Shown one piece after another: positions 12,593-48,379 of a stretch of 64,000 nucleotides of DNA; the stretch's first letter is position 1, and each line of letters starts with the position of its first letter. Position numbers and translations under genes: made by a program. The notes under the pieces were generated by a model, which was not told the DNA's origin, ran no database searches, and saw only the letters and a program-made list of their open reading frames with translations. The DNA is from an uncultured Candidatus Actinomarina sp. (GTDB taxonomy: Bacteria; Actinomycetota; Acidimicrobiia; Actinomarinales; Actinomarinaceae), in contig CACODT010000003.1 of NCBI GenBank assembly GCA_902626065.1, forward strand, positions 18,895-82,894, written 5' to 3'.

Positions 12593-13597
12593 TTAATCAG
12601 TATTTCTAAGATTCTCCACAATTAATTCAACAGCGCTTATCAAGAATTCTGGATATGTTTGACCTTCCTTCAAAGTCTCAACCCATAATCCTTCAACTGC
12701 TTTAATACCAGTTTCTGCAACAATTGTTTCTGCATAAACTGATGGAGCTTCTGCTTCAATAAAAATTACTTTTACATTATTGTCCTGGATTACATCAATA
12801 ACATCTACCAGCTGTGCTGGTGATATTTCATTTGCAGAATCTACATCTGGAATGATGGTTGATAAAACTTGTAGTCCAAATTTAGCTTCAAGGTAACCTA
12901 GTGATTCATGAGTTGTAATTAATTTTCTATTCTGTGAGGGGACTGTTGATAATAGATCAGAAACCTGACCTGTTAAGCCGCTCAATTCGCTTTTATAGGT
13001 TGCTAATGATGATTGGTAATCAGATTCGTTATCCGGATCAAATTCACTTAATTTTGATTCAATATATTCAACAGCATATACGACTCTTCCTGGGTCAAAC
13101 CAGAAGTGAGGATCATATGCACCATGATTGTGACCTTCATGTTCGTCATCACCTTCTTCATCATCATGACCTTCTTCATCATCATGATCATCGTGGTCAT
13201 CATGCCCACCTTCTTCAAATTCTATTGGAAAAACATTTTCACCAATTTCAGCAAGAATAGTTTGACTACATGCTGAGTTTTCCAATAATTTTATAACAGC
13301 TGCCGGTTCATATTTTAAACCTGTATAGAAAACGAGATCGGCATCAGCAATTGTTCCCGCGTCTTGAGGGGCAGGTTCATAAGTATGTGGATCTGCTTCG
13401 GCTGGCATTAAGACTGTAAGATTTACATTATCTCCAGCTACTTGATCGACAAATTCACCCATCATAGGAGTAGTGGCTACAACATTGAGGTTTCTATCTC
13501 CCAGTTCTGGACATCCAGCTTCTGAACCTCCAGTGCATGCAATTAACACAATGGAAAGTGCTATTACACCTAATTTAAAAAATTTATTGTTATTCAA
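12593..13597 (-). CDS. znuA: Metal ABC substrate-binding lipoprotein with a His/Asp-rich loop (zinc-type, ZnuA-like)
   Basis: Lipobox 'VLIACTGG'. Cluster-9 binding-protein features 'DPHTYEP' and 'DPHFWFDP'. Long loop 'GGHDDHDDHDDEEGHDDEEGDDEHEGHNHG', characteristic of zinc-specific ZnuA. Confidence 0.85.
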   Translation of the reverse strand: MNNNKFFKLGVIALSIVLIACTGGSEAGCPELGDRNLNVVATTPMMGEFVDQVAGDNVNLTVLMPAEADPHTYEPAPQDAGTIADADLVFYTGLKYEPAAVIKLLENSACSQTILAEIGENVFPIEFEEGGHDDHDDHDDEEGHDDEEGDDEHEGHNHGAYDPHFWFDPGRVVYAVEYIESKLSEFDPDNESDYQSSLATYKSELSGLTGQVSDLLSTVPSQNRKLITTHESLGYLEAKFGLQVLSTIIPDVDSANEISPAQLVDVIDVIQDNNVKVIFIEAEAPSVYAETIVAETGIKAVEGLWVETLKEGQTYPEFLISAVELIVENLRNTD

Positions 13598-23456: not shown

Positions 23457-23891
23457 ATGAATTCAGAAGTTGATTTTGCAGCGGGTGGAATCGTTTTGGT
23501 TAACGAAAAAATACTCTTGGTTAAAAATAGGTTAAGTGAGGAATACGAAAAAGACTACGATTCAAGTTTTTGGGGTTATCCAAAAGGACACTTAGATGGT
23601 AGAGAGACACCTGTTGAAGCTGCTGAAAGAGAGGTTTATGAAGAAACAGGTTTTAGAGTATCGGTTACAGAAAAAAAACCAATTGCAGAGTCACGCTATG
23701 AAATTAAAAAAGATGGCAAACCTATCCAAAAAACTGTCTGGTTTTATAAAATGAAAATCCTAGAGAGCTATGCCAAAGAACCAGATAACGAAATTGAAGA
23801 GATTGCGCTTGTACCGTACGAGAGAGCTTTCGAATTACTAGCTTACGAGGAAGATAAAAAAATTCTTAAATATGTATTCGACAGAAAATAA
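23457..23891 (+). CDS. NUDIX hydrolase
   Basis: Nudix box 'GHLDGRETPVEAAEREVYEETGF' (G-x5-E-x7-REUxEExGU). Confidence 0.85.
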   Translation: MNSEVDFAAGGIVLVNEKILLVKNRLSEEYEKDYDSSFWGYPKGHLDGRETPVEAAEREVYEETGFRVSVTEKKPIAESRYEIKKDGKPIQKTVWFYKMKILESYAKEPDNEIEEIALVPYERAFELLAYEEDKKILKYVFDRK

Positions 23892-24579
23892 AAAAATTCA
23901 TTATTTTTACAATGGTGTATTTTATACGCGAAAGTTAAATGATTTTGTAGATGATATTTTATTTGAAAAACTATATGGTGGTGCCGGATTATTAAAAAAA
24001 GTTTCAACTATATCAAAAAAATTAAATTACCGATTCAGTTCCTCAATGATAAGTGAAAACTCAATTAATTCATGGGTTGATTCAGGTTGGATAATCAATC
24101 ACAGGCTGAATGTTTGCATATTAAACCTGAAAAAATTAAATCACTCAGGTCCGAGTGAGTATGAAAATATCGAGATTAAAAAATTAGAACTTAAGGATAT
24201 AGAATACTTAATCGATCTTGATCACAAAATATTTGATGATTACTGGAAAAACTCCTCTGCAAGTTTTGAAGAAACAATGAAAAGTTGTAATAATAACTAT
24301 TTATTTAAAAGCAAAACAAAAAATGAGCTAAACGGATATGCAATTTTAGGAGAGACAAGAAGGTTTACATATCTTCAACGTATTGGAATAATAAAAAGTT
24401 TTCAAGGTAACGGTCTTGGGGAAAACCTTCTAAATAGTGTTATACAATTTTCTCTAAATAAAAAATTTATAAATATAAAACTAAATACCCAAAATGACAA
24501 TGTTTCAGCCTTAAATCTCTACAAAAAAAAAGATTTTGAAATTTCGCCTAGAAAGCTTGTAATCATGAAAACTTCATGA
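23872..24579 (+). CDS. GNAT family N-acetyltransferase (C-terminal domain)
   Basis: Acetyl-CoA motif A 'LQRIGIIKSFQGNGLGENLLNSVIQF' plus 'NVSALNLYKKKDFE'. The start is uncertain because the ORF overlaps the Nudix 3' end by 20 nt. Confidence 0.7.
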   Translation: MYSTENKKIHYFYNGVFYTRKLNDFVDDILFEKLYGGAGLLKKVSTISKKLNYRFSSSMISENSINSWVDSGWIINHRLNVCILNLKKLNHSGPSEYENIEIKKLELKDIEYLIDLDHKIFDDYWKNSSASFEETMKSCNNNYLFKSKTKNELNGYAILGETRRFTYLQRIGIIKSFQGNGLGENLLNSVIQFSLNKKFINIKLNTQNDNVSALNLYKKKDFEISPRKLVIMKTS

Positions 24580-31149: not shown

Positions 31150-31385
31150 TTTTTATCCTGTTTAAACACAATATATGAAAAATTTATTTAAACAAAGTAA
31201 ATTAATATTTAATTTAAAAGTTCGCGAAAACAAAATTACATTCGCGAAAACAAAACTAACTAAGTTTTTTAATTTATATCATGATGATTTAAAAATATTT
31301 ATTTTGATTAAATATTCTCAATGATTATTAGGTTTTTTAATAAAAATAAAAACATTGTTTAAATTTAATATGTTTTTGCCACTCT
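31150..31385. other. Candidate oriC / dnaA promoter region
   Basis: Extremely AT-rich 236-bp spacer between divergent rpmH and dnaA. Coding-strand polarity switches here: mostly minus to the left, plus for about 17 kb to the right. I found only weak DnaA-box-like 9-mers (6-7 of 9). Confidence 0.5.
31221..31255 (+). repeat. Two 15-bp direct repeats 'TTCGCGAAAACAAAA' with 20-bp period
   Basis: Identical copies at 31221-31235 and 31241-31255. Each starts with the palindrome TTCGCGAA. This is the only G+C-containing motif in the rpmH-dnaA spacer. Confidence 0.9.
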
Positions 31386-32853: not shown

Positions 32854-33969
32854 GTGAAATTTAAAACAAAAACTAAAGATATTAAAGAAGTTATTGCGGC
32901 TGTTTCCAGGGTTGTAAACCCGAGGCCATCTACACCTGTTTTGAGTGGTCTGTATATGAGGGCTGACGAAGGTGGTGTGGAAATTATTGGATCAGATCTA
33001 GACATTACAATTAAATCAAATATTGAAGTCGAAGTAGATGTGGAAGGAGACTGTCTTGTAAGTTCGAACAAACTATCTGAGATAGTTAGAAAGCTTCCTG
33101 AAGGCGATGTCATGTTCTCTGATGTTGGTAGTGATCTAAAAATTGAAACCACCTCTTTAAGTTTTACGTTGAGAAAACTTGAAAATGAAGAATACCCGGA
33201 AGCTTTTCTAAAAAGCCACGAAGAAAACGAAAACACCCAGGAAGTTTTGGTATCTGAGCTTTTTGACTCCATAAAAAACGTGGGAATAGCCTCTACACCA
33301 GAAGGTGGTAGACCCGTGTTAACAGGGGTTTATTTCAACAACCGAGAAGAAAAAACAGAACTTGCCGCAACAGACAGCTATCGTCTTGCAACACAAGAAA
33401 TAAGCAGCTTCCCCATTGATGATGTTGGAATTATTTCTTTCCGATCTTTAAGTGAAGTTATAAGACTTTTTGAAAACGAAGAAAGTACTTTGAAAATTAA
33501 CTCCAACGAAAAAGATCTTTATTTTTTTAATGATAAGTATTTTGCATCGCTTAGGAAGGTTGAGGGTAGTTTCCCCGAATACCAGAACCTTTTTCCAAAA
33601 GAAACTCTATTTACTGCTGAAGTTAACAAGAATGAAATACTCGAGTGTCTAGATAGATCAACTGTTGTCGCAGAGGGATACATACCTGTAACTTTTATTT
33701 TTGAAAACAATGATTTGTTAAAAATTACAACATTAAATAAAGATGTAGGAGGTGGAAACGAAGAATTAAAAGTAAAAATACTTGGCGTAGAAACAGGAGA
33801 CATAGACGGGTTTCAAATGTCATTTAACCCAAGTTTTTTAATTCAAGGAATTGAGGTTCTAGAAGGCAACAAAGCCTACTTTAGATTTTCAGGTAACGAA
33901 AAGCCTGTAGTAATACAAGGCGATTCCGAAAACTATAAATACTTACTAATGCCAGTAAGATCATCGTGA
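32854..33969 (+). CDS. dnaN: DNA polymerase III beta sliding clamp
   Basis: GTG start, 371 aa. 'VVNPRPSTPVLSGLYMRADEGGVEIIGSDLDI', 'GRPVLTGVYF', 'ATDSYRLA' and the C-terminal 'YLLMPVR' are typical DnaN. Confidence 0.95.
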   Translation: MKFKTKTKDIKEVIAAVSRVVNPRPSTPVLSGLYMRADEGGVEIIGSDLDITIKSNIEVEVDVEGDCLVSSNKLSEIVRKLPEGDVMFSDVGSDLKIETTSLSFTLRKLENEEYPEAFLKSHEENENTQEVLVSELFDSIKNVGIASTPEGGRPVLTGVYFNNREEKTELAATDSYRLATQEISSFPIDDVGIISFRSLSEVIRLFENEESTLKINSNEKDLYFFNDKYFASLRKVEGSFPEYQNLFPKETLFTAEVNKNEILECLDRSTVVAEGYIPVTFIFENNDLLKITTLNKDVGGGNEELKVKILGVETGDIDGFQMSFNPSFLIQGIEVLEGNKAYFRFSGNEKPVVIQGDSENYKYLLMPVRSS

Positions 33970-34256
33970 ACCAAAATATTGGACCCGAAAAAATAAACAT
34001 CGAACAAAACAATTTAGGGATTAACTTTACTAAATCAAAACTAATAAAAAAACACCTCAGTAAATCTTCCTTTTCTTGGAAAAATGAAATTACATCAGGA
34101 CCCCTAATAAACGACAATCTCACTATTTACGTGAACTCCACAAGACTTAAAGACATAATTGAGCTGGAGTCTTTAAAAATAATAAATAATATTGAAAAAA
34201 ACCTTGGATTTTCAGTGAATTCAGTGGTTGTTCAATTGCAAAATAACCAGCAATAA
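33966..34256 (+). CDS. DUF721/DciA-like small protein (Rv0004 position)
   Basis: GTG start overlaps the dnaN stop (GTGA). 'WKNEITSGPLINDNLTIYVNSTRLKDIIELESLKIINNIEKNLGFSVNSVVVQL' follows the DUF721 pattern W...p..l.dg.L.v.v.s..w..el......i...l...lg...v..i.v. Synteny places it between dnaN and gyrB. Confidence 0.6.
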   Translation: MNQNIGPEKINIEQNNLGINFTKSKLIKKHLSKSSFSWKNEITSGPLINDNLTIYVNSTRLKDIIELESLKIINNIEKNLGFSVNSVVVQLQNNQQ

Positions 34257-34333: not shown

Positions 34334-36256
34334 GTGCCAAAAAAAGATTCAAAAAGTTATGATTCAAAAGACATAAAAGTCTTAGAAGGTCTCGAAGCCG
34401 TAAGAAAAAGACCAGCTATGTATATTGGATCTACAGGACCAAACGGCCTACACCACCTGATATGGGAAGTCGTAGACAATTCTGTTGACGAAGCAATGGC
34501 CGGAAGATGTTCACAAATTGACGTCATTCTAGAAAAAAACGGATCCGTAACAGTTAAAGACAACGGAAGTGGTATACCAGTTAAACCACATCCAAAAACA
34601 AAAAAATCTGCACTAACAACCGTTTTAACAACTTTACATGCAGGCGGGAAGTTTGAGTCTGGTGCGTATACCGTCAGTGGAGGGCTACACGGAGTCGGAA
34701 TATCCGTTGTGAATGCACTTTCTGTTTTTGTCAAAGTTGAGGTTGAGAGAGATGGACATGTATGGAATCAAAATTTTGATTTTGGAAAACCAACATCAAA
34801 AATAAAAAAAGGTAAAGCTTCAAAAAAAACAGGAACAAAAATAAATTTTTTACCTGATCCTAAAATATTTGATGAAACACAACTTTTTGAATATAACATT
34901 GTTTCAGAAAGGTTACGACAAACAGCTTTTCTAAACAAGAGTTTAAAGATTAACCTAACCGACAACAGGGTAAAGCCCGCAACAAAAGAAAAGTTTTTCT
35001 ATAAAGGTGGTTTAGTAGATTTCGTTGACTATCTAAATGAGGGATATGAAGTTCTTCACGAAAAAACAATTTCTTTTTCAGATCAGAGTAAAGATTCAGA
35101 AATTGATGTCGCTATGCAATGGAAAAATGAAGATGATGTAAACATTAAAAGTTTTGCAAACAATATTCATACACTTGAGGGAGGGACCCATGAAGAAGGC
35201 CTTAGAACCGCGGTCACAAAAGCTATTAACGATTTTGCTAAATCAAGAAACCTACACTCAGACATTTCTTTAACAGGCGATGACATTAGAGAAGGGCTCA
35301 CTGGGGTGGTGTCAGTAAGGGTTAAAGAGCCACAGTTTGAAGGTCAAACAAAAACTAAACTTGGTAATACAGAAATGAAATCTAAAGTACAAGTTTTAGT
35401 TAACCAAGAATTTCCAAAATGGCTCTCTAAAAACACCAAAGAAGGAAGAGCAATTGTTGAGAGATGTGCGTTAGCTGCAAAAGCAAGAATGAGCGCAAAG
35501 AAAGCAAGAGAACTTACAAAAAGAAAAAGCATTCTTGAGACATCAGGGCTTCCCGGAAAATTAGCAGACTGTTCATCCACAGATCCATCAGAAAGCGAGT
35601 TATTCATTGTTGAGGGAGATTCCGCTGCTGGTCCTGCAAAACAAGCGAGAGATTCAAGAACACAAGCAATTCTTCCTATAAGAGGAAAAATTATAAACGT
35701 TCAAAAAGTTACAGAAAATAGAGCACTACAAAATGAAGAAATAAGTTCACTAATAAAAGCAATTGGCACCGGTATAAACACAGAATACAACGGAGAAGAG
35801 TCGAGATACGATAAAATAATTTTTTTAACAGATGCTGATGTTGATGGAGCACACATACGTACATTATTATTAACATTCTTTTTTAAATTCATGCCCGGTC
35901 TAATAAAAGAAGGAAAAGTTTGGATATCTGAGCCACCCCTTTATAGAGCTAAGTCCTCAGGTTCTATAAATTATCTAAAAGACGACAAATCACTAGAAGC
36001 TTTTAAAAAAGAAAATAAGAATAAAAAATTTGATATAAGTCGGTTTAAAGGTTTAGGAGAAATGAATGCAGGAGAGCTTTGGGACACCGCTATGAACCCA
36101 GAAACCAGAACACTAATAAAAGTAAGTATTGCAGATGGAAAAGCAGCAGAAGCAAGAGCGGCAAACATGTTTGAGGTTTTGATGGGCAATGATGTTGCAA
36201 AGAGGAAGTCGTTTATTGAGGAAAACGCAAAAGATGTAAGATTCTTGGACGTATAA
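34334..36256 (+). CDS. gyrB: DNA gyrase subunit B
   Basis: GTG start after 'AGGAGA'. 'LEGLEAVRKRPAMYIGST', 'HHLIWEVVDNSVDEA', 'GGLHGVG', 'EGDSAGG' and 'PIRGKILNV'-type 'PIRGKIINV', 'LTDADVDGAHIRTLLLTFF'. Confidence 0.97.
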   Translation: MPKKDSKSYDSKDIKVLEGLEAVRKRPAMYIGSTGPNGLHHLIWEVVDNSVDEAMAGRCSQIDVILEKNGSVTVKDNGSGIPVKPHPKTKKSALTTVLTTLHAGGKFESGAYTVSGGLHGVGISVVNALSVFVKVEVERDGHVWNQNFDFGKPTSKIKKGKASKKTGTKINFLPDPKIFDETQLFEYNIVSERLRQTAFLNKSLKINLTDNRVKPATKEKFFYKGGLVDFVDYLNEGYEVLHEKTISFSDQSKDSEIDVAMQWKNEDDVNIKSFANNIHTLEGGTHEEGLRTAVTKAINDFAKSRNLHSDISLTGDDIREGLTGVVSVRVKEPQFEGQTKTKLGNTEMKSKVQVLVNQEFPKWLSKNTKEGRAIVERCALAAKARMSAKKARELTKRKSILETSGLPGKLADCSSTDPSESELFIVEGDSAAGPAKQARDSRTQAILPIRGKIINVQKVTENRALQNEEISSLIKAIGTGINTEYNGEESRYDKIIFLTDADVDGAHIRTLLLTFFFKFMPGLIKEGKVWISEPPLYRAKSSGSINYLKDDKSLEAFKKENKNKKFDISRFKGLGEMNAGELWDTAMNPETRTLIKVSIADGKAAEARAANMFEVLMGNDVAKRKSFIEENAKDVRFLDV

Positions 36257-36257
36257 T

Positions 36258-38828
36258 ATGGCAGCTAAGAAACCAGCAGCTAAGAAACCAGCAGCTAAGA
36301 AACCAGCAGCTAAGAAACCAGTAGCTAAGAAACCAGCAGCTAAGAAACCAGCAGCTAAGAAACCAGCAGCAAAAAAATCAAAATCTTCAGTAGTAACAAA
36401 TAAAAAGCAAACAACCAGAACCGAAACATTAAATGGAGCAATTGCTGTTGAGGATGAAATATCCAAATCATTCTTAGATTATGCAATGTCTGTTATTGTT
36501 TCAAGAGCCTTACCTGATGTTAAAGACGGACTAAAGCCTGTTCAAAGGCGAATTCTGTATTCAATGTATGAAACAGGAATTAGACCAACTGGACCTTTTA
36601 GGAAATGTTCCAAGGTTGTAGGTGATGTAATGGGTAATTATCATCCACACGGTAATGAAGCAATCTACGGAACTCTTGTAAGATTAGGACAAAATTTTAG
36701 TACTAGGTATCCTTTAATTGAACCTCAAGGAAACTTTGGAACACCCGATGATCCACCGGCTGCTATGCGGTACACAGAATCAAGAATGTCTTCTTTGTCA
36801 TCACAACTTTTAGATGGAATAGATGAAGAGACGGTAGATTTCGAACCTAATTATTCTGGGGAAACAACGGAACCAAAAGTTTTACCCGGAAGATTTCCAA
36901 ACCTTTTAATTAATGGAGCCGAGGGTATTGCAGTTGCGATGGCAACAAATATGCCACCGTATAATTTAAAAGAGATTACAGAAGCCGTAAAATTCACTCT
37001 AAAAACAAAAGATCCAAAACCAAAAGACTATTTAAAAATAATAAAAGGACCAGATTTCCCCACAGGAGGCCTTATTGTTGAAACACCAACGATAAAAGAT
37101 GCAATTCTTAAAGGTCGGGGGTCAATAAAACTTCGAGCTGTGGCAGATATCGAAGAACTCGGTAAAGGTAAATCAGCAATTATTGTTAAAGAACTTCCGT
37201 ATCAAGCCTCTATAGATAGAATCATGGAAAAAATAGCATCATTGGTTCAAGATAAAAAGCTAACTGGGGTTTCAGATTTAAGAAACGAAAGTAGTGACAG
37301 AAACGGAACAAGGCTTGTGGTTGAACTTAAGAGAGATGCTGTACCACAGGTTGTATTGAATGAGCTTTTTAAATTTACACAGCTACAAGATACTTTTTCT
37401 GTAAATTCAGTAGCTTTAGTCGAAGGGGTACCAAGGGTTTTATCTGTTCCTGAATTAATTAGATATTATATTGACCATCAAATAGACGTAATTCAACGGA
37501 GATCAAAATTTAGACTTGAAAAGGCAAAAGCAAGGCTACATATCGTTGATGGTTTACTTTTAGCCTTAAATAAAATTGATCAAATAATCAAAGTAATTAA
37601 ATCTTCAAAAGATGTTGAAGTTGCTAAAAAGTCGTTAATGAGTAAATTTAAACTATCAGAAATTCAGGCAACACACATTCTTGATATGCCCCTTAGACGA
37701 CTTACAGCGCTAGAGAAAGAAAAACTTGAAGATGAAAAGAAAGACCTAAAAGAAACTATAAAAGACTTATCTGGAATTTTAAAAAGTAGAGCAAAACAAA
37801 ATCAAATCTTAGTCGAAGAGCTTGATGCAATAACTAACAAATTTGGAGATGAAAGAAGGTCACGTTTAGTTCCCGATGTTGGTGAAGTAAAAATTGAAGA
37901 CTTAATAGAAGATGAAGAGATCATCGTTTCAATTTCCTCAGAGGGATATATTAAATCAGTACCTTCAACATCTTACAAAAAACAAGGAAGGGGCGGTAAA
38001 GGAGTTAAGGCCTCATCCTCCGAAGAAGATGTAATTGAGCACCTTTTATCAACCTCAGTTCATTCTTATCTTCTTTTCTTTACAGATCATGGAAAAGTTT
38101 ATAGAGCTAAAGCGCATGAAATTCCTAAAACTAATAGAATCGCTAAAGGATCTTTAATTCATAATGTTCTATCCATGGGACAAGAAGAAAAAGTACAAGC
38201 GATAATTGATACAAGAGATTATGAAACAGAAAAATTCTTACTCATTATGACTGAGAAAGGAACTGTTAAAAAGTCTAAATTTAAGGATTTTGATTCAAAT
38301 TATAAATCACTTCAGGCTATAAAACTCAAAGATGATGACAAGGTTGTTTCAGTTAAGACAACATCAGGAAAGGAAGATGTAATTCTTGTTTCTCAAAAAG
38401 GGCAAGCAATTAGGTTTGATGAGAATAACCTAAAACCACAAGGAAGAACAGCAATGGGGGTTAGGGGAATAAAACTGCGTGAGGGCGATAAAGTAGTTGG
38501 TGCAGCAACGTCTAGAGAAGAAACTCTTTTATTTATAACGGCAAAAGGATATGGAAAAAGAACAAAACTCGATGAATTTAGAAGGGCTGGAAGAGGAGGT
38601 CTCGGAGTAAAAGCTTTAAAGGTTACCGAAGCAAAAGGAGATTTAGTTGGAGCAAGGTCTGTTGATGAAGATACTGAAGTTATGCTTATGAGTACTGGTG
38701 GAACTGCAATAAGATGTGCAGTAAAGCAAATAAAACAAATGAGTAGAGTTGCTCAAGGAGTAAAGGTTATGAAGCTTTCAAAAGAAGAGGAAATATCAGC
38801 ATTTATTCCGATTAAAAACGAATCATAA
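36258..38828 (+). CDS. gyrA: DNA gyrase subunit A with an N-terminal lysine-rich (AAKKP)n extension
   Basis: ATG lies 1 nt after the gyrB stop. 'MAAKKPAAKKPAAKKPAAKKPVAKKPAAKKPAAKKPAAKKSKSS' precedes the canonical 'FLDYAMSVIVSRALPDVKDGLKPVQRRILYSM', 'GNYHPHG' and 'RYTESRM' (catalytic Tyr region), followed by the C-terminal beta-pinwheel repeats. Confidence 0.97.
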   Translation: MAAKKPAAKKPAAKKPAAKKPVAKKPAAKKPAAKKPAAKKSKSSVVTNKKQTTRTETLNGAIAVEDEISKSFLDYAMSVIVSRALPDVKDGLKPVQRRILYSMYETGIRPTGPFRKCSKVVGDVMGNYHPHGNEAIYGTLVRLGQNFSTRYPLIEPQGNFGTPDDPPAAMRYTESRMSSLSSQLLDGIDEETVDFEPNYSGETTEPKVLPGRFPNLLINGAEGIAVAMATNMPPYNLKEITEAVKFTLKTKDPKPKDYLKIIKGPDFPTGGLIVETPTIKDAILKGRGSIKLRAVADIEELGKGKSAIIVKELPYQASIDRIMEKIASLVQDKKLTGVSDLRNESSDRNGTRLVVELKRDAVPQVVLNELFKFTQLQDTFSVNSVALVEGVPRVLSVPELIRYYIDHQIDVIQRRSKFRLEKAKARLHIVDGLLLALNKIDQIIKVIKSSKDVEVAKKSLMSKFKLSEIQATHILDMPLRRLTALEKEKLEDEKKDLKETIKDLSGILKSRAKQNQILVEELDAITNKFGDERRSRLVPDVGEVKIEDLIEDEEIIVSISSEGYIKSVPSTSYKKQGRGGKGVKASSSEEDVIEHLLSTSVHSYLLFFTDHGKVYRAKAHEIPKTNRIAKGSLIHNVLSMGQEEKVQAIIDTRDYETEKFLLIMTEKGTVKKSKFKDFDSNYKSLQAIKLKDDDKVVSVKTTSGKEDVILVSQKGQAIRFDENNLKPQGRTAMGVRGIKLREGDKVVGAATSREETLLFITAKGYGKRTKLDEFRRAGRGGLGVKALKVTEAKGDLVGARSVDEDTEVMLMSTGGTAIRCAVKQIKQMSRVAQGVKVMKLSKEEEISAFIPIKNES
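36261..36380 (+). repeat. 15-bp in-frame tandem repeat (7 near-identical plus 1 degenerate copy), 'gcagctaagaaacca'
   Basis: Units start at 36261, 36276, 36291, 36306, 36321 (g-t variant), 36336 and 36351. A degenerate unit spans 36366-36380. Encodes AAKKP repeats at the GyrA N-terminus. Confidence 0.95.
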
Positions 38829-39418: not shown

Positions 39419-39447
39419 ATTTTGCTACACTTAATCACTAAATAAAT

Positions 39448-39532
39448 AAAGTAACAAAGCGAAGCTAGTGAAAATCTAGCACTGTCCCGCAACTGTGATT
39501 CGAAAGATAAGTCAGGTCGACTTTATTACTTT
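39448..39532 (+). promoter_or_regulatory. Cobalamin riboswitch-like aptamer (compact form)
   Basis: 'AGCGAAGCUAGUGAAAAUCUAGCACUGUCCCGCAACUGUGA' matches the conserved core GGGAA..GGUGAAAAUCC...C.G.CCCGC.ACUGU.A. 'AAGUCAGG' matches the B12-box start. A closing helix AAAGUAA(39448-54)/UUACUUU(39526-32) is possible. There is no long P6 extension. A downstream helix CGAGAGAAG/CUUUUUCUCG lies just before the RBS of the BtuF-like gene. Confidence 0.65.
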
Positions 39533-39597
39533 TTTACAACAATCCTCGAGAGAAGGAATGGAGTATCGTACTTTTTCTCGTGGTAAGAAAGGAAAAT

Positions 39598-40569
39598 ATG
39601 AAAACAAAAACACTTCTTCTTGCCATGATAATTTCAATGTGTGGAGGTACATTTGATGAAGGTAATGAAAAAAACATTATTTCACTATCAACCACTCACA
39701 CAGAAATTATTCAAATGCTTGAAGCTGAGAACCAGCTAATTGGTGTTGACTCGTTCTCAGAAACAGAGCTTCCAATAAAAAAAATAGATGCCTATACAGT
39801 TACAGCTGACGAGCTTCTTTTGCTCAATCCAGATATTGTCATTGTTGCTTTTGATTTTAACGGTATCGTAGAGGGATTAGAAAATTTAAATATTGAATAT
39901 GTTCTTCTTCCACCTGCACAAAATTTGGATGACGTTTATTACCAAATTGAAACGATTGGGACAATTATTAACAAAGAAAATACAGCAAGTTCTCTAGTTT
40001 TAGAAATGAAATCTGACATTGATGAAATTATTGAAAACTCAGCAACTGAATCTAGATCTGTTTATCACGAAATTGGTTACACATATGGCATATATTCAAT
40101 AAATGAAAATTCTTTTTTAGGAGAAATTTACAATATTCTTGGTGTAAGCAATATTGCAGATAAGACTGAGGACCCGTACGGATCTGGTTACCCACTTCTT
40201 GAAGAAGAACAGGTTTTAAATGCAAACCCTGATCTAATCGTAATTGGACACTCTGACTTTTTGAATAAAGACATTTCAACAAGACAAGGTTGGGATGGAC
40301 TTAATGCCGTAACAAATGAGAATGTTTATTTCCTTGATGAAAATCTAGCAAATAATTGGGGTGTAAATACTGTTGATTTGATAAATACATTATCTGAAAT
40401 AACAAAATTTAATGAAGATCCTGGTTTAGTTTATAAAGCAAAATATTTAGAAAGTGATCTTGGAAGCTCAGACAGTACTCAAAACATCATCATTGCAACA
40501 ATAATTGTGATAATCTTGACAGCGTACATACTTATTACCAGAAGGAATAAGAGTAAAGTACAAAGTTAA
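39598..40569 (+). CDS. Periplasmic-binding-protein (BtuF/FecB class) lipoprotein, probable cobalamin binding, with C-terminal TM helix
   Basis: I prefer ATG 39598 (after 'AAGAAAGGAAAAT') over the track GTG 39580. Lipobox 'IISMCGG'. 'IISLSTTHTEIIQMLEAENQLIGVDSFS' and 'LLLLNPDIVIV' are typical class-III binding-protein motifs. C-terminal 'IIIATIIVIILTAYILITRRNK'. Confidence 0.7.
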   Translation: MKTKTLLLAMIISMCGGTFDEGNEKNIISLSTTHTEIIQMLEAENQLIGVDSFSETELPIKKIDAYTVTADELLLLNPDIVIVAFDFNGIVEGLENLNIEYVLLPPAQNLDDVYYQIETIGTIINKENTASSLVLEMKSDIDEIIENSATESRSVYHEIGYTYGIYSINENSFLGEIYNILGVSNIADKTEDPYGSGYPLLEEEQVLNANPDLIVIGHSDFLNKDISTRQGWDGLNAVTNENVYFLDENLANNWGVNTVDLINTLSEITKFNEDPGLVYKAKYLESDLGSSDSTQNIIIATIIVIILTAYILITRRNKSKVQS

Positions 40570-43160: not shown

Positions 43161-43664
43161 ATGAAAAAAATAAGCATACTTTTTTTTATTCTATTTTTTA
43201 ATATTTGTGTTTCATCGGAAAATGGAGTTATTTCAATTTCTGAAAACACAGTAACAACCCAAATTGTAAATGAAGAAGATTATCCATTTGTTTTAGCAAA
43301 TTGTTTAAATGATGAAAAGGGCTATCAAATTTTAACTCCTTTTGATTTAGAGGATTTAAAAACAACAATAAACCAATTAAGTCAAAGTAAGGAAGATGAA
43401 TTAGAACTCAAAGAAGCTATTGATTTTTGTATTGATAAATACAACCTATGGACCGATCGAAGTACTTTAAACCCAGAAGAACTGGCAAAATTGTATGATG
43501 AAAATATTTCTTTGGCAAAATGTCTGAGAGAAAAAGGTCTTGATGTATCCGATCCAACTCAAGATCAACCTAAAATTGATTTAAGCAACTTAGTTCAATC
43601 AAAAGATGAAACAATTGCTTTATTAGACGAATGTGAGGTTGATGAAAAAACAACTAAAAAATAA
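43161..43664 (+). CDS. Secreted 4-Cys repeat protein, paralog 1
   Basis: Signal peptide 'MKKISILFFILFFNICVSS'. Two modules: 'LANCLNDEKGYQILTP...DFC' and 'LAKCLREKGLDVSDP...DEC'. Confidence 0.75.
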   Translation: MKKISILFFILFFNICVSSENGVISISENTVTTQIVNEEDYPFVLANCLNDEKGYQILTPFDLEDLKTTINQLSQSKEDELELKEAIDFCIDKYNLWTDRSTLNPEELAKLYDENISLAKCLREKGLDVSDPTQDQPKIDLSNLVQSKDETIALLDECEVDEKTTKK

Positions 43665-44241
43665 GTCTTTAATATTATTAATTTTTTTACTAATTCAAGC
43701 TTGTTCAGCTTCAAATGAGCAAAAAGGTGTCGTTTCTTCCGAAGACTTAACAATACAAACAACTGTTACAACAGTAATAACAGTTCAGGACAATCCTGAA
43801 ATTGAAGATTTAACAGAAGAGGAAGCACAGCTAATACTTGCAGGATGTTTAAGGGAAAAAGGTTATGATGTCGCAGATCCAAAAAATGATGAGGGCTTAA
43901 GAACAGTTTTAACACCAATATTTATTAGTTTCAATGAAAAACAGAGGGAGGAGTTGTTTCAAAATATACAATTGTGTGCAGAGGAGAACTCTATTCCACT
44001 TGAAAGCAACAATGACTTTGAAAACCCTGACGATGTTGCTGATAGGCTTGACACTGAACTTGAGTTTGCGCAGTGTCTAAGAGGTAAAGGAATAGATGTT
44101 TCTGATCCATCATCTGAAGAACCTCTAAGACCAATACTTATTGAACTTGTACAGTCGGAAAAATATACAGCGAATAAAATACGAGAAGCTGCTGCAGAGT
44201 GTTTTGACGATCTAGGTCTTGATCCTCCGCCTGGCGGGTAG
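43642..44241 (+). CDS. Secreted 4-Cys repeat lipoprotein, paralog 2
   Basis: Preferred ATG 43642 gives 'MKKQLKNKSLILLIFLLIQACSAS' (lipobox). Modules: 'LAGCLREKGYDVADP...QLC' and 'FAQCLRGKGIDVSDP...AEC'. Overlaps paralog 1 by 23 nt. Confidence 0.75.
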   Translation: MKKQLKNKSLILLIFLLIQACSASNEQKGVVSSEDLTIQTTVTTVITVQDNPEIEDLTEEEAQLILAGCLREKGYDVADPKNDEGLRTVLTPIFISFNEKQREELFQNIQLCAEENSIPLESNNDFENPDDVADRLDTELEFAQCLRGKGIDVSDPSSEEPLRPILIELVQSEKYTANKIREAAAECFDDLGLDPPPGG

Positions 44242-44265
44242 CAAAAAATACTTTATAATTTTGAT

Positions 44266-44862
44266 GTGAGAAAAAAAATAGCAGTATTCATATTATTTTT
44301 TTCTTTTTGCTCACTATTTCAAAATGAAGAGCAAGCTGTGGTATCTGTTGTCGATACAGATAAAGGAAAAGAGGCTATTGCGGCAGGTATAGAAATTAGT
44401 GAAGAGAAAGAGGAAATAGCAGATGAAGATGCACCACTTGTTTTGGTTCAATGCGTAAACGAAGCAGGATATAAATTTAAAGAACCCAAAAACTTTATAG
44501 ATTTATACACAACAATTTCAACTTACTTTGAGACGCTTACTGAACAGGAAGCAGAAGAACTCTGGAAATCAATTGAAGATTGTGCACTTAAATATAACTT
44601 ATGGGGAGTTGCTGATGAAGCACAATTTGAAGACCCAATTCAAACTTCAAAAGAATTAGACAGAGCTTTATTTATAGCAAATTGTTTTAGAGAAGAAGGA
44701 TATGAAAAAGTACCAGATCCTAATTATTTCAATAGAGATGTAAATCTTGATGCATATATTGATGAAAATTGGGAACTTAGAGAAGACGACCCCTTAGTTC
44801 AAACTTGGCAAGGTTGTGAAGAAAAGTTACCCGATGAATTAAAGGAAGAGTGGGATGATTAA
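44266..44862 (+). CDS. Secreted 4-Cys repeat protein, paralog 3
   Basis: GTG start. Signal 'MRKKIAVFILFFSFCSLF'. Modules: 'LVQCVNEAGYKFKEP...EDC' and 'IANCFREEGYEKVPDP...QGC'. Confidence 0.75.
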   Translation: MRKKIAVFILFFSFCSLFQNEEQAVVSVVDTDKGKEAIAAGIEISEEKEEIADEDAPLVLVQCVNEAGYKFKEPKNFIDLYTTISTYFETLTEQEAEELWKSIEDCALKYNLWGVADEAQFEDPIQTSKELDRALFIANCFREEGYEKVPDPNYFNRDVNLDAYIDENWELREDDPLVQTWQGCEEKLPDELKEEWDD

Positions 44863-44932
44863 AACTTACAATAAAAATTTTCTCTTAATATCGCTAAATA
44901 CAATAAAATACTCTAAGTAGAAAAATACACAT

Positions 44933-46519
44933 ATGAAATTAAATATATTTAAAAATAGAAATTTTTATATCCTGATAGTTTTAATAGTTATTGGTTCTGC
45001 TGGTTATTATGTTGGAACCCAAAATACTGAATCTTCATCAGTTAACAAAACACTACAGCTCACAACTGTTTCAATCCAGCAAGGTGACCTCGAAAAGAAA
45101 GAAGAGTACAACGGGACACTAAGACAAACTGATAGCAAAATACTTAACAGTCCAATGGCTGGAGTTGTTACTTTTATTCCAGATGAAGGAACTATTATAA
45201 AATTTGGAGAAATTCTTTTTGCTGTAGATAATAAACCTGTAATCCTGGTTGAAGGTTCAGTTCCTTTCTACAGAACATTAGATCTAAACTCTGATCCAGG
45301 ACCAGATGTATTACAACTTGAAAAAGCACTAGTTTATTTAGGATATGCAGCTGATGGATTTGTTCCAGATGACACTTTCGATGAAACTACTTCACAGATG
45401 CTTAACAAGCTTTATTTTGACTACAAAATAGAAACAAAATCTGAAGTTACTCCATCTGAGCAGGTTGCTATCAATTTGAAAGAAACAGAAGTAAAGAATA
45501 TTGAAGAAACCATTGACTCAGGTGGGACAACAATTACTGAAGTAAATGATAAAAAAAAGAAACTAGACGATGCAAAAGAAGATGCAACAGAAGAGAGCGC
45601 AGCTTGGAAAGCAGCAGATACAGCAATTAAAGACGCTGAAGAGACTTTGACACTTTATAGAGATGAAACAAACCCAAAAACAAAAGAGAAAAAAGCTGAT
45701 GGAACTTTAGATTCTGCAATTGAAGACTTAGAACAAACAATAGAAGAACAAAAAAGAATTAAAGCACTAGAAAAAGGAAAAGAGTCAGGCATAGACGCAA
45801 CAGAGGCACTTGCAATTGAGACAGCTCAAAAAGCTTATGAGGATGTTTTAAAAGACTACAATGAAGGAGTTGATCAGGAAGCTGAATTAGCAAAAGCAAA
45901 AGAAGAACTAGAAGAACTTAGATTAGCTTCAAAGTCAGAAACATTTAGTCCAACAAACGCCTATGCATCGGAAACAGCAATAATTGTTGGTTCTTATATA
46001 AACAAGGTTGGATCAGCAGTAGTTCTAAACTCTCAGCTTTATAATATTTCTTCAGTTGGAATTGAGGTTGTTTTCCAAGTTGATGCATCAGATCAAGAGA
46101 CAGTTTCAATTGGAGATAGTGTTGAGATAGAACTTCCTACAGATGAAAGAGTACCAACGGTAATTACCTTTATAGACCAAGTCGTTACTCAAACTCAAAC
46201 TGGAGATTTTATTGAGGTGATTCTTGAAGTACTAAATCCAGAAGAAATTGAAGCTTATGATCAAGCACCAGTAAAAGTATTTGTTACAACTGAAATATCC
46301 GAGAATGTGCTTTATGTACCTGTAAATGCACTAATTGCTTTAGCTGAGGGAGGTTATGCTTTAGAAATTTATGAAGGTGAAGCTGAAGGAGGAGTTTTTG
46401 AGGGTGAATCAGGAGTTGACACTATCTATGTAGCTGTTGAAATTGGAGTCTTTACTGATGGGTTTGTAGAAATCAAGGGAAATATTACTAAAGGTCAACT
46501 TGTAGTCGTACCACGATGA
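44933..46519 (+). CDS. MacA/HlyD-like membrane-fusion adaptor with an embedded peptidoglycan-binding domain and long coiled coil
   Basis: N-terminal TM 'FYILIVLIVIGSAGYYVG'. Lipoyl-like 'LNSPMAGVVTFIPDEGTIIKFGEILFAV'. PG_binding_1-like 'GPDVLQLEKALVYLGYAADGFVPDDTFDETTSQMLNKLY'. About 170 aa of K/E/A-rich coiled coil. Beta-barrel 'VSIGDSVEIELP'. Confidence 0.8.
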   Translation: MKLNIFKNRNFYILIVLIVIGSAGYYVGTQNTESSSVNKTLQLTTVSIQQGDLEKKEEYNGTLRQTDSKILNSPMAGVVTFIPDEGTIIKFGEILFAVDNKPVILVEGSVPFYRTLDLNSDPGPDVLQLEKALVYLGYAADGFVPDDTFDETTSQMLNKLYFDYKIETKSEVTPSEQVAINLKETEVKNIEETIDSGGTTITEVNDKKKKLDDAKEDATEESAAWKAADTAIKDAEETLTLYRDETNPKTKEKKADGTLDSAIEDLEQTIEEQKRIKALEKGKESGIDATEALAIETAQKAYEDVLKDYNEGVDQEAELAKAKEELEELRLASKSETFSPTNAYASETAIIVGSYINKVGSAVVLNSQLYNISSVGIEVVFQVDASDQETVSIGDSVEIELPTDERVPTVITFIDQVVTQTQTGDFIEVILEVLNPEEIEAYDQAPVKVFVTTEISENVLYVPVNALIALAEGGYALEIYEGEAEGGVFEGESGVDTIYVAVEIGVFTDGFVEIKGNITKGQLVVVPR

Positions 46520-47220
46520 AAACCGATACAAAAACTGTAATTTCAATCAATGATATTTCAAAAGTTTATGAAGGACCACCCCCTGTAAAAGCACTAGATG
46601 GAGTTTCTTTAAATGTTAAAGAAGGAGATTTAGTTGCAATTGTTGGACAATCTGGAAGTGGTAAATCAACTTTACTAAATATGATTGGATTATTGGATAG
46701 TATTACAGACGGTTCAATTGAAATAGAAGGCAAAGATATATCTGACTTAACAGATAATGAACTATCAAAATTTAGAGGTGAAAAAATAGGATTCATTTTT
46801 CAAAGCTTTTTTCTTCTGCCTGGATTGACAGCACAAGAGAATGTTGCAGAGGGGTTACTATATCAAGGGATTTCAAGGTCAGAAAGGTTAGAAAAAGCAG
46901 GAGATGTTTTAGAACAAGTAGGACTAGGTGATAGGTTAAGCCACCTTCCCAAAGAACTTTCCGGTGGTCAGCAACAAAGAGTTGCAATTGCTAGAGCGCT
47001 AGTACAAGACCCAGCATTTGTTTTAGCAGATGAGCCAACTGGAAATTTGGATAAAGAATCAGGAATAAATATTTTAAATATCTTAAAAGAACTTAATGAC
47101 CAAGGAAAAACTGTAATTATGATTACTCACAATCAAGAACACGCAAATATGTTTAAAAAAGTAATTGAATTGGTTGATGGAAAAATTGTGAAAAATGAAA
47201 AGAAAAAAACTAAGAACTAG
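46516..47220 (+). CDS. ABC transporter ATP-binding protein (MacB-type)
   Basis: ATG overlaps the adaptor stop (ATGA). 'GQSGSGKSTLLN', 'LSGGQQQRVAIARAL', 'VLADEPTGNLD', 'ITHN'. Confidence 0.9.
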   Translation: MKTDTKTVISINDISKVYEGPPPVKALDGVSLNVKEGDLVAIVGQSGSGKSTLLNMIGLLDSITDGSIEIEGKDISDLTDNELSKFRGEKIGFIFQSFFLLPGLTAQENVAEGLLYQGISRSERLEKAGDVLEQVGLGDRLSHLPKELSGGQQQRVAIARALVQDPAFVLADEPTGNLDKESGINILNILKELNDQGKTVIMITHNQEHANMFKKVIELVDGKIVKNEKKKTKN

Positions 47221-48379
47221 AGATTTATTTTTTGTTGCACTTTATGGCGTACGCGCAAGAAAAGGAAGAGCTACTCTTACTTCTATTGGAATTGGAATAG
47301 GAATAGCTGCAATAGTTGCAGTTTCCGGAATATCAGCATCTGGAAGGGCTGACTTACTATCAACTCTTGAGTCACTTGGAACAAATCTGGTAAAAGCTTC
47401 TCCTCAAGCAGGATTTTTTGGAACTCAAGAAGATTTACCAAAAGGAGTTCTTGGAATGGTTGAAAGAATTGGACCAGTTGAAGAAGTAACATCTACAACT
47501 CAGACTGATTTATTAGTTCGTAGAAGTAACTTCATATCAGAATTTGAAGGTGGGGGAATTTCAACAATAATTACGAGCGCAGAACTTTTAGATGTAATTG
47601 GAGGTAATCTTGTTGAAGGCAGATTCATTACACCTGGTTTGTCTAACATACCTGTAACCGTGTTAGGAAGCGTTACTGCTGAGAGACTTGGAATTACAAA
47701 TCTCTCGACACCTACAAAAATTCTCATTGATAATGAATGGTTTGGGGTAATAGGGGTATTAGAAGAGCTTAAAATACATCCAGACCTAGATAGATCAGTA
47801 TTTATAGGTTATGGAGTTGCAAAAACTCTTTTTGATATTGATGAGGAACCAACAACAATTTACTTAAGAGCAAATCCAACTTTTATTGAGGATGTTGTTG
47901 AGGTACTAGCTCCATCAATGAATCCTGAAAATCCTGATCAAGTAGAAGTTACTAGACCCTCAGATGCACTTGAGGCGCAACAAGCAGCTGAAGAAGCATT
48001 TACTAATTTATTACTGGGGCTTGGTTCCGTAGCTCTTCTTGTTGGAGGTGTTGCAATAGCAAACGTAATGGTTATGTCTGTTCTTGAAAGAAGAATGGAA
48101 ATTGGTGTGAGAAGATCAATTGGAGCAACCCGTAGAGAAATAAGGTATCAATTTTTATTAGAAAGTATTGTTTTATCTGGAATAGGAGGACTTGTTGGTG
48201 TTGGCCTAGGAACCTTCATTACCTTGGCTTACACTAACTACACAGATATTGTATTCTCAATACCTATATGGCAGATTTTAGGAGCAGTATTTTTAGCATT
48301 ATTAATTGGAGCAATTTCAGGAGTATATCCAGCTATAAAAGCATCAAAAATTCAACCAGCAGAAGCAGTAAGAAAGTAA
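47195..48379 (+). CDS. ABC transporter permease, MacB/FtsX type (4 TM plus extracytoplasmic domain)
   Basis: 394 aa. 'GRATLTSIGIGIGIAAIV' (TM1), about 220-aa external domain, FtsX block 'ERRMEIGVRRSIGATRREI', C-terminal 'YPAIKASKIQPAEAVRK'. Confidence 0.9.
   Translation: MKRKKLRTRDLFFVALYGVRARKGRATLTSIGIGIGIAAIVAVSGISASGRADLLSTLESLGTNLVKASPQAGFFGTQEDLPKGVLGMVERIGPVEEVTSTTQTDLLVRRSNFISEFEGGGISTIITSAELLDVIGGNLVEGRFITPGLSNIPVTVLGSVTAERLGITNLSTPTKILIDNEWFGVIGVLEELKIHPDLDRSVFIGYGVAKTLFDIDEEPTTIYLRANPTFIEDVVEVLAPSMNPENPDQVEVTRPSDALEAQQAAEEAFTNLLLGLGSVALLVGGVAIANVMVMSVLERRMEIGVRRSIGATRREIRYQFLLESIVLSGIGGLVGVGLGTFITLAYTNYTDIVFSIPIWQILGAVFLALLIGAISGVYPAIKASKIQPAEAVRK

Follow-up and report, generated by a model that had tools for sequence, protein, structure and literature searches.

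One question raised by the 5′ end of gyrA in an uncultured Candidatus Actinomarina sp. is why a gene coding for the A subunit of DNA gyrase (GyrA) should begin with a tandem repeat, and whether the lysine-rich peptide encoded by this repeat is a genuine part of the enzyme with a role of its own. The gene lies in a stretch of 64,000 nucleotides of contig CACODT010000003.1 that we analyzed as a whole (hereinafter, the window). The comparative analysis of GyrA sequences indicates that this N-terminal tail is translated and kept by selection. The interpretation that we favor, with a probability of roughly 0.6, is that the tail is a disordered polycationic clamp, which would bind DNA non-specifically and raise the affinity, the residence time, or the processivity of gyrase.

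The Lysine-Repeat Tail of GyrA

The array at 36261-36370, embedding 7.3 copies of the 15-bp unit GCAGCTAAGAAACCA (97% matches, 0 indels), is the strongest tandem repeat detected by Tandem Repeats Finder (TRF) in the 64-kb window, standing at the top of 59 rows with a score of 213, the runner-up scoring 171. Read in codons, the ATG is followed by seven units of the type GCA GCT AAG AAA CCA, the fifth of which carries a GCA>GTA change, and by an eighth, degenerate unit (GCA GCA AAA AAA TCA). An earlier note on this DNA had described the same layout of seven near-identical units plus a degenerate one, and the tail peptide that it gave is identical to the translation from ATG 36258, that is, MAAKKPAAKKPAAKKPAAKKPVAKKPAAKKPAAKKPAAKKSKSS. 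The whole segment preceding the motif FLDYAMS (aa 1-71) bears a net charge of +17, and the tail and linker region comprises the peptides TETLNGAIAVEDEISK and SSVVTNK. A six-frame scan revealed no other lysine-repeat segment in the window, though DnaA, DnaN, ParA, ParB, and GyrB are encoded there. An antisense open reading frame (ORF) at 36113-36466 (117 aa, ...AAGFLAAGFL...) overlaps the end of gyrB and was discarded as a mechanical by-product of the repeat, devoid of support.

The ORF that starts with the array (36258-38828, 856 aa) codes for a genuine GyrA. Indeed, it reaches 1070.9 bits against NF004043 (cutoff 902) and 1034.6 bits against TIGR01063 (cutoff 877) and remains below the cutoffs of all the ParC equivalog models of NCBIfam; moreover, Pfam recognizes DNA_topoisoIV (aa 83-523) and six DNA_gyraseA_C blades. 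The NF004043 alignment covers aa 62-849 (profile positions 5-795 of 798), and the closest PDB sequence, the mycobacterial GyrA u150807 (chain 8s7k_C), is aligned from its residue 17; residue 62, where the homology to both the family profile and the PDB sequence begins, thus corresponds to residue 17 of M. tuberculosis. Since this homology starts only at residue 62, the repeat (aa 1-45) and the linker that follows it (aa 46-61) are additional to the canonical protein. The earlier note had set the canonical start of GyrA near LDYAMS, a boundary that has to be moved, because other actinobacterial loci have about 19-62 residues (mostly 20-35) before this motif; the true extension consists of about 45 aa of repeat and about 16 aa of variable linker. 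Both the length and the sequence of the linker are lineage-dependent (VQNG, EVAPKSQTAVIDG, IEAENDTLVLEDGLST, and others), with SQTAVIDGTIAVEDEISK as an example from the abundant class of 843-aa homologues.

Conservation of the Tail in the Actinomarina Clade

The 120 closest GyrA homologues (86-95% identity), retrieved from a collection of 5.8 billion proteins (sources ENA, JGI, NCBI, and Logan), and ten Actinomarina loci in which the N-terminus is present make up a set of 130 clade sequences with 94 unique tails. The best genome matches, with 87-96% protein identity, are single-cell genomes and metagenome-assembled genomes (MAGs) labelled Candidatus Actinomarina, OCS155 cluster, or TMED189. 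The xxKKx repeat tail is present, always in frame, in all of the 130 sequences examined, none of which is devoid of units. The number of period-5 KK units per tail varies from 1 to 11 and falls between 5 and 9 in 87 of the 94 unique tails, just three having fewer than four; across the same 94 tails, FLDYAMS is preceded by 37-72 aa, bearing a net charge of +5 to +20. The tail is kept over a range of 86-96% protein identity, in six or more species representatives, and also in lineages with point-mutated repeats, in spite of the extreme genome streamlining of the order. Actinomarinales genomes are about 1.1 Mb in size, with about 32.5% GC and a median intergenic spacer of 2-3 bp (PMC7771536).

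The pattern of variation within the tail was analyzed on the 80 homologues that share a length of 843 aa and have 54 distinct tails, by counting the cells that differ from the consensus. The lysine columns vary by 0.37%, which is close to the value of the enzyme body (0.44%), whereas the non-lysine columns of the tail vary by 14.7%, with A, P, T, and S replacing one another in the spacers. In the genes, the lysine pairs are encoded by codons that are synonymous between lineages, that is, AAG AAA in the window and in the relatives L002, L010, L081, and L085, and AAA AAA in L003, L004, L005, and L082. The finding that the lysines are fixed and the spacers free points to purifying selection acting on a periodic basic peptide and not on a DNA or RNA motif.

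Distribution Outside the Clade

Other actinobacterial loci, 74 from genomes and 75 from metagenomes, have no such tail, and their predicted N-termini are mostly 19-62 aa long, with a net charge of -17 to +2. In the same way, no lysine repeat is present in the 150 nearest representatives of 50%-identity clusters (1.84 billion proteins), the most basic N-terminus of which has a charge of +6 and is non-repetitive. The nearest GyrA from outside the clade belong to other Acidimicrobiia (54-69% identity, GC 0.58-0.65) and are tail-less. On the whole, the tail appears to be restricted to the Actinomarina clade among the approximately 300 other GyrA compared, which are a sample of bacterial GyrA rather than all of them and whose short N-termini are, with few exceptions, neutral or acidic. 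A homology search with the 56-aa tail only yielded 11 word-sharing candidates, none of which was scored, apparently because few low-complexity words are indexed.

The idea that the tail might be linked to a small, AT-rich genome, put forward in the earlier note, does not hold in general. Indeed, actinobacterial loci with a GC content of 0.37-0.47 (L103, L104, L106, L115, L121-L123, L139-L142, and others) have ordinary N-termini with no tail and a net charge of -5 to 0, which rules out low GC or streamlining as a sufficient cause. The alignment with GyrA from low-GC actinobacteria suggested in the same note places the extension in the Actinomarina clade and reveals its absence from low-GC freshwater actinobacteria.

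Translation of the Tail

Only 1 nt separates the TAA stop codon of gyrB (36254-36256) from the ATG of gyrA, and this ATG is the sole in-frame ATG/GTG/TTG between the upstream stop and the methionine of LDYAMS. In the relatives, the two genes either overlap in a TAATG (L002, L003, L005, L081, L083, and L084) or keep the 1-nt spacer (L010 and L082). No promoter-like or terminator-like site was detected at the gyrB-gyrA junction, the nearest promoter-like match on the + strand lying about 390 nt upstream, inside gyrB. A separate gyrA promoter was discarded on this basis, and also because the number of such sites does not exceed that of shuffled sequences. The organization of the two genes indicates that gyrBA is a translationally coupled operon. 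No Shine-Dalgarno motif is present at a normal distance upstream of ATG 36258, and initiation must, therefore, rely on coupling to gyrB. These data are in agreement with the idea that the repeat belongs to GyrA and is translated, as the earlier note had assumed.

It might be argued that the repeat is missing from the mature protein, owing to a non-canonical internal start, or that it is an assembly artefact. Translation of the tail is deduced from the sequence, perfect tandem repeats can be mis-assembled, and an in-frame ATG is located just past the repeat in one of the nine relatives whose DNA covers the start (L082). Nevertheless, the window and the other eight relatives have no in-frame ATG/GTG/TTG between the repeat and the conserved core, the same architecture is shared by single-cell genomes, MAGs, and metagenome contigs from the four sources mentioned above, and the reading frame is maintained in every variant array, regardless of whether the unit is 15 bp, 30 bp (L082 and L005), or 33 bp (L083) long. 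Such a conservation of frame and lysines is not expected of untranslated DNA, and this explanation appears highly improbable. A conserved internal start, or a repeat absent or out of frame in close relatives, which according to the earlier note would speak against translation of the tail, was looked for and not seen; the repeat is in frame in all of them.

The same junction might be read in a different way, that is, with a selected role of the repeat in gene expression. According to this view, an A-rich and weakly structured 5′ coding region would aid the re-initiation of ribosomes after gyrB, the peptide being a tolerated by-product, whose length drifts by slippage. The lack of a Shine-Dalgarno motif at a normal distance, the overlap or 1-nt distance between the gyrB stop and the gyrA start, the A-rich lysine codons, and the high variability of the copy number would all fit this idea. 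However, the RNA at 36228-36400 is neither less nor more structured than its shuffles (z = -0.50); only the first few codons would matter, yet 87 of the 94 unique tails hold 5-9 units; other low-GC actinobacteria do without such a region; and lysines conserved like the catalytic core, next to residues free to change among A, P, T, and S, are the signature of constraint at the protein level. We consider a role in expression quite unlikely. Similarly, a role of RNA structure at 36228-36400 was rejected on the basis of the same z value and of the absence of any Rfam match there.

Turnover of the Array

Within each genome, the units are near-identical, and the modal unit depends on the lineage: it is CCA GCA GCT AAG AAA in the window, CCT GCA GCA AAG AAA in L081 and L085, CCC GCA GCA AAA AAA in L082, and CCA GCA GCT AAA AAA in L003, L004, and L005. 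This pattern points to concerted evolution by slippage or unequal exchange. The mean number of nucleotide differences per unit is 2.61 within arrays versus 3.50 between arrays, a weak contrast because the edge units have diverged; the lineage-specific modal unit represents the clearer signal. The suggestion that the array is recent or homogenized is, therefore, well borne out by the homogenization within genomes and by the lineage-specific synonymous codons.

The array also behaves as the slippage hotspot that had been anticipated, since, besides the range of 1-11 units in relatives, the counts differ between proteins sharing identical 784-aa bodies, namely P0078 and P0080 (7 vs 6 units) and P0062 and P0074 (8 vs 7 units). 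Copy number, whose variation across related GyrA the earlier note had proposed to check, thus appears to shift faster than the protein body. In L083 (around 1357-1460), the 15-bp unit is replaced by a 33-bp one coding for KKPAPKKKVTT, repeated about three times, which implies that the array can re-form with a new period and still be basic. A different case is that of P0100 and P0115, whose 784-aa bodies are identical and whose tails and linkers are unrelated (PPAKKTAAKK type vs PTNKKPAQKK type); this suggests either recombination at the 5′ end or a chimeric metagenome assembly, and the pair was not used as evidence.

These dynamics raise the possibility that the tail has no function and is just a low-complexity expansion, neutral or slightly deleterious, in which a MA-KKP-like seed was amplified by slippage without harm. 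Tandem repeats do grow readily, the units were recently homogenized, and possible seeds of the MAKK or MADDKKP-like type are present at the start of other actinobacterial GyrA (L124, L103, and P0134). On the other hand, every clade sequence seen harbors the tail, no tail out of 130 falls below one unit and only three of the 94 unique ones below four, and the lysines are kept (0.37% variation) even in repeats that have diverged by point mutation; moreover, a genome with intergenic spacers of 2-3 bp seldom keeps useless sequence. A neutral origin and maintenance of the tail is, in our opinion, of low probability.

Comparison with Known Lysine-Repeat Proteins and Gyrase Modules

Lysine repeats of the type K1-2(A/T/N)3-5 have been described at the C-terminus of topoisomerase I (TopA), where they stabilize the TopA-DNA complex and confer high processivity (Strzalka et al. 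2017, PMC5714199). Such repeats are enriched among proteins that bind DNA, occur likewise in FtsK, HupS, Ku, and HrdB, and have been linked to GC-rich genomes by the same authors (PMC5714199). The window GyrA conforms to this motif, with eight KK units separated by three small neutral spacer residues (P-A-A or P-V-A), the spacers of its relatives being made up of A, P, T, S, and Q. The likeness to TopA and HupB proposed in the earlier note is borne out, in that the tail fits the lysine-repeat definition except for the proline of its spacers, which lies outside the formal motif, although proline content has been named as a genus-variable feature (PMC5714199).

The TopA repeats and the GyrA tail share the motif class, a topoisomerase as the carrier, their occurrence in Actinobacteria, and a variable number of repeats (in TopA, both between and within genera). 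However, the former are located at the C-terminus of a type IA enzyme and the latter at the N-terminus of a type IIA gyrase, which leaves GyrA outside the family of TopA C-terminal domains. In addition, the GyrA tail has a strictly pentameric spacing with proline, is encoded by a recently homogenized DNA tandem repeat, and belongs to a genome of about 33% GC (0.28-0.40 across the window) rather than to a GC-rich one; GyrA was not named by Strzalka et al.

The PAKKA/KAAK tails of mycobacterial HupB and Streptomyces HupS are also similar, being rich in Ala, Lys, and Pro, H1-like, disordered, and basic, and boosting DNA binding in Actinobacteria, with lysines that are targeted by acetylation (PMC7398561). 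Nevertheless, they are fused to the HU fold of nucleoid-associated proteins, whereas the Actinomarina carrier is an enzyme; indeed, Pfam revealed gyrase domains only and no HU domain (Bac_DNA_binding) in the window GyrA. Membership in the histone H1-like families was likewise rejected, all the scores being below the cutoffs for HC2 (PF07382, 32.9 or 32.2 bits vs 40), NF038053 (27.4 vs 80), and NF038052 (17.5 vs 135). The weak profile matches of Chlamydia Hc2 and of the Burkholderia-type NF038053 at aa 2-59 reflect a similar composition and periodicity, that is, a compositional likeness and not homology.

As for gyrase itself, the TOPRIM domain of GyrB contains in E. coli a lineage-specific insertion that swivels around GyrA's N-terminal arm, and deletion of this insertion greatly cuts DNA binding and supercoiling (PMC6821735). 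Like the tail described here, it is a clade-restricted accessory element that adjoins this arm at the DNA gate; unlike it, the insertion is a domain with a fold of its own (about 170 aa) within GyrB rather than a disordered repeat on GyrA. This example reveals that additional modules for handling DNA do get added to gyrases at this site. Among eukaryotes, topoisomerase II alpha has a lysine-rich disordered C-terminal domain (chromatin tether), which is thought to raise its residence on chromatin/DNA. It resembles the Actinomarina tail as a lysine-rich unstructured appendage of a type IIA topoisomerase and differs from it in lying at the opposite terminus, in having no simple tandem repeat, and in its eukaryotic regulatory modifications; the two are evolutionarily unrelated.

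The literature searched on gyrase lysine repeats, H1-like tails, GyrA N-terminal extensions, and Actinomarina describes no such gyrase, and neither gyrase nor lysine comes up in the paper on Actinomarinales genomes (PMC7771536); this is also in agreement with the earlier note, which was not aware of a GyrA with such a tail. The motif class is known, and GyrA as its carrier is not.

A Possible DNA Clamp at the DNA Gate

A remaining question concerns what the tail might do. Given its lack of hydrophobic residues and a proline that recurs every five residues, the tail is almost certainly a disordered, strongly cationic segment. In GyrA, the N-terminal arm is located at the DNA gate, against the TOPRIM domain of GyrB, so that the two tails of the A2B2 enzyme should come out alongside the G-segment and the DNA that runs on to the wrapping domain; the existence of crystallized GyrB-GyrA fusion constructs in the PDB shows that the GyrA N-terminus is exposed at the subunit junction. 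Each tail of about 45 residues, which would bear most of the net charge of about +17, might bind the phosphate backbone by non-specific electrostatics, and the resulting increase in affinity and residence on DNA might, in turn, lead to more processivity or to nucleoid association. A precedent is topoisomerase I of Actinobacteria, whose lysine repeats at the C-terminus have been shown to act in this manner. The array turns over by replication slippage or unequal recombination, with selection retaining the lysines, and unit lengths that are multiples of 3 nt allow the tail to change in length without destroying the protein.

Several points weigh against this interpretation. Both the function of the tail and its translation are deduced from comparing sequences, and the ATG lacks a Shine-Dalgarno motif at a normal distance. 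The association of lysine repeats with GC-rich genomes contrasts with the GC content of about 33%, so the rationale for their presence may be different. Copy number spans widely, from 1 to 11 units, which suggests that the exact length of the tail is not critical; in addition, some of the differences in copy number could be artefacts of short-read assembly, in which the size of perfect arrays can be wrong, a problem that does not affect the abundant 843-aa class with its degenerate arrays. Lastly, the AlphaFold2 model, obtained from a 21-sequence alignment, had a mean pLDDT of 41.5 and a pTM of 0.30 and was poor even for the known core.

The tail might also be translated and selected for a target other than DNA, such as a polyanion (RNA or polyphosphate) or an acidic surface of gyrase onto which it would fold back in an autoregulatory manner, or it might supply lysines whose acetylation would switch the activity of gyrase. 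E. coli GyrA has an acidic C-terminal tail, of which the fold-back version of the Actinomarina tail would be the charge-reversed counterpart. What is conserved is charge and periodicity only, which any polyanion partner could explain. Concerning acetylation, the lysine repeats of HupB and Ku undergo acetylation, as is suspected for those of TopA, and this affects DNA binding (PMC7398561); moreover, a gene for a GNAT acetyltransferase is present in the window (23872-24579), though nothing ties it to GyrA. However, all the characterized bacterial lysine-repeat tails act on DNA, the carrier is a DNA enzyme with the tail directly beside the bound DNA, and no specific partner is indicated by any of the results; a different target appears unlikely on these grounds.

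Gyrase, a major drug target, ranks with the bacterial enzymes that have been studied most thoroughly and are most conserved. Lineage-specific accessory elements are rare on it, and those such as the acidic tail of GyrA and the insertion in E. coli GyrB have been mechanistically instructive. If the DNA clamp is correct, a tail at the DNA gate would be a natural experiment on how extra non-specific DNA contacts affect wrapping, strand passage, and processivity in a type IIA topoisomerase, in parallel with the effect of lysine repeats on topoisomerase I. Although such a tail may be surprising to a topoisomerase specialist, it would be a mechanistic extension of an established principle. The tail also shows that the actinobacterial lysine-repeat module is not bound to GC-rich genomes and can move to new carriers, and that an extremely streamlined, globally abundant marine bacterium retains a fast-evolving tandem repeat in an essential gene, thereby offering natural length variants. 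We can further speculate that, by growing and shrinking in frame, the array serves as an evolvable tuning knob that sets DNA affinity or processivity and, through them, the set-points of supercoiling, with gyrase doubling as a nucleoid-structuring protein and a global regulator. The setting might be suitable, with gyrases that are nearly the same across strains except for their 1-11 units (5-9 in most tails), and with an ultra-small cell that is poor in regulators (two sigma factors and no two-component systems); even so, we regard this idea as a rather improbable one.

Gene Features and Genomic Context

The features of gyrA and of the adjacent gyrB are listed in Table 1. Tyrosine 172 is taken to be the catalytic residue on the basis of established knowledge of type IIA topoisomerases, and the GyrA box is a hallmark of supercoiling-competent gyrase that sets it apart from ParC.

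Table 1. Position of gyrB and of the gyrA elements in the window (coordinates refer to the first letter of the 64,000-nt stretch).
Feature	Coordinates	Strand	Basis or description
gyrB, 640 aa	34334..36256	+	Pfam HATPase_c, DNA_gyraseB, Toprim, DNA_gyraseB_C
gyrA start codon ATG	36258..36260	+	Only in-frame start before the Met of LDYAMS; coupled to gyrB
15-bp tandem array GCAGCTAAGAAACCA	36261..36370	+	TRF and codon layout
Coding region of the lysine-repeat tail, GyrA aa 1-45	36258..36392	+	M(AAKKP)4 VAKKP (AAKKP)2 AAKKS KSS
Variable linker, aa 46-61 (VVTNKKQTTRTETLNG)	36393..36440	+	Joins the tail to the conserved N-terminal arm; outside the family profile
Canonical GyrA body, aa 62-856, and stop codon	36441..38828	+	Profile, PDB, Pfam
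Parts of the body			N-terminal arm, winged-helix/tower/coiled-coil domain, six-bladed C-terminal beta-pinwheel
Codon of the catalytic tyrosine, Y172 in AAMRYTE	36771..36773	+	Translation; motif invariant in alignment A1
GyrA box QGRGGKG, aa 576-582, first C-terminal blade	37983..38003	+	Translation; invariant in alignment A1

The Pfam analysis of the neighboring genes revealed the order gidB-jag-yidC-rnpA followed by dnaA-dnaN-(96-aa ORF)-gyrB-gyrA-DUF3566, which is that of the actinobacterial origin region. The gene recF is not located between dnaN and gyrB, its place in most Actinobacteria; the 96-aa ORF (33966-34256, + strand) is found there instead. This ORF overlaps the dnaN stop and has no Pfam or NCBIfam match, even at a Pfam E-value limit of 5, and it may represent a diverged DUF721-like protein or a remnant. 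In the intergenic region between rnpA and dnaA, where the GC content of the window is lowest (0.28), a 26-bp AT-rich direct repeat is present in 2.2 copies (31161-31218) and may be part of oriC; the cumulative GC skew climbs steadily from about 32 kb on.

Downstream of gyrA, an AdoCbl (cobalamin) riboswitch (RF01482, 64.8 bits vs a gathering score of 50) was detected at 39434-39573 on the + strand, directly upstream of a gene for a Peripla_BP_2 substrate-binding protein (39580-40569). This arrangement suggests that the gyrA-DUF3566 operon is directly followed by an uptake gene under B12 control. Further on, four successive ORFs of the + strand (43161-46519; 167, 202, 198, and 528 aa), without Pfam matches at E <= 1e-5, sit just 5′ of an ABC-transporter/FtsX pair (46516-48379).

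Other repeats are scattered in the window. The 3′ end of an ORF with a FecR domain (3836-7033, 1065 aa) harbors a 42-bp tandem repeat on the + strand (6926-7014, 2.1 copies, 97% match, score 171), which encodes a duplicated segment rich in Pro, Glu, and Ala. Degenerate 9- and 18-bp repeats at 13131-13217 and 15781-15853, made up of GAT/GAA-type codons, give rise to acidic D/E-rich stretches in a minus-strand ORF (12593-13597) and in the N-terminal part of a 799-aa BNR/Sortilin-repeat protein (15674-18073), respectively.

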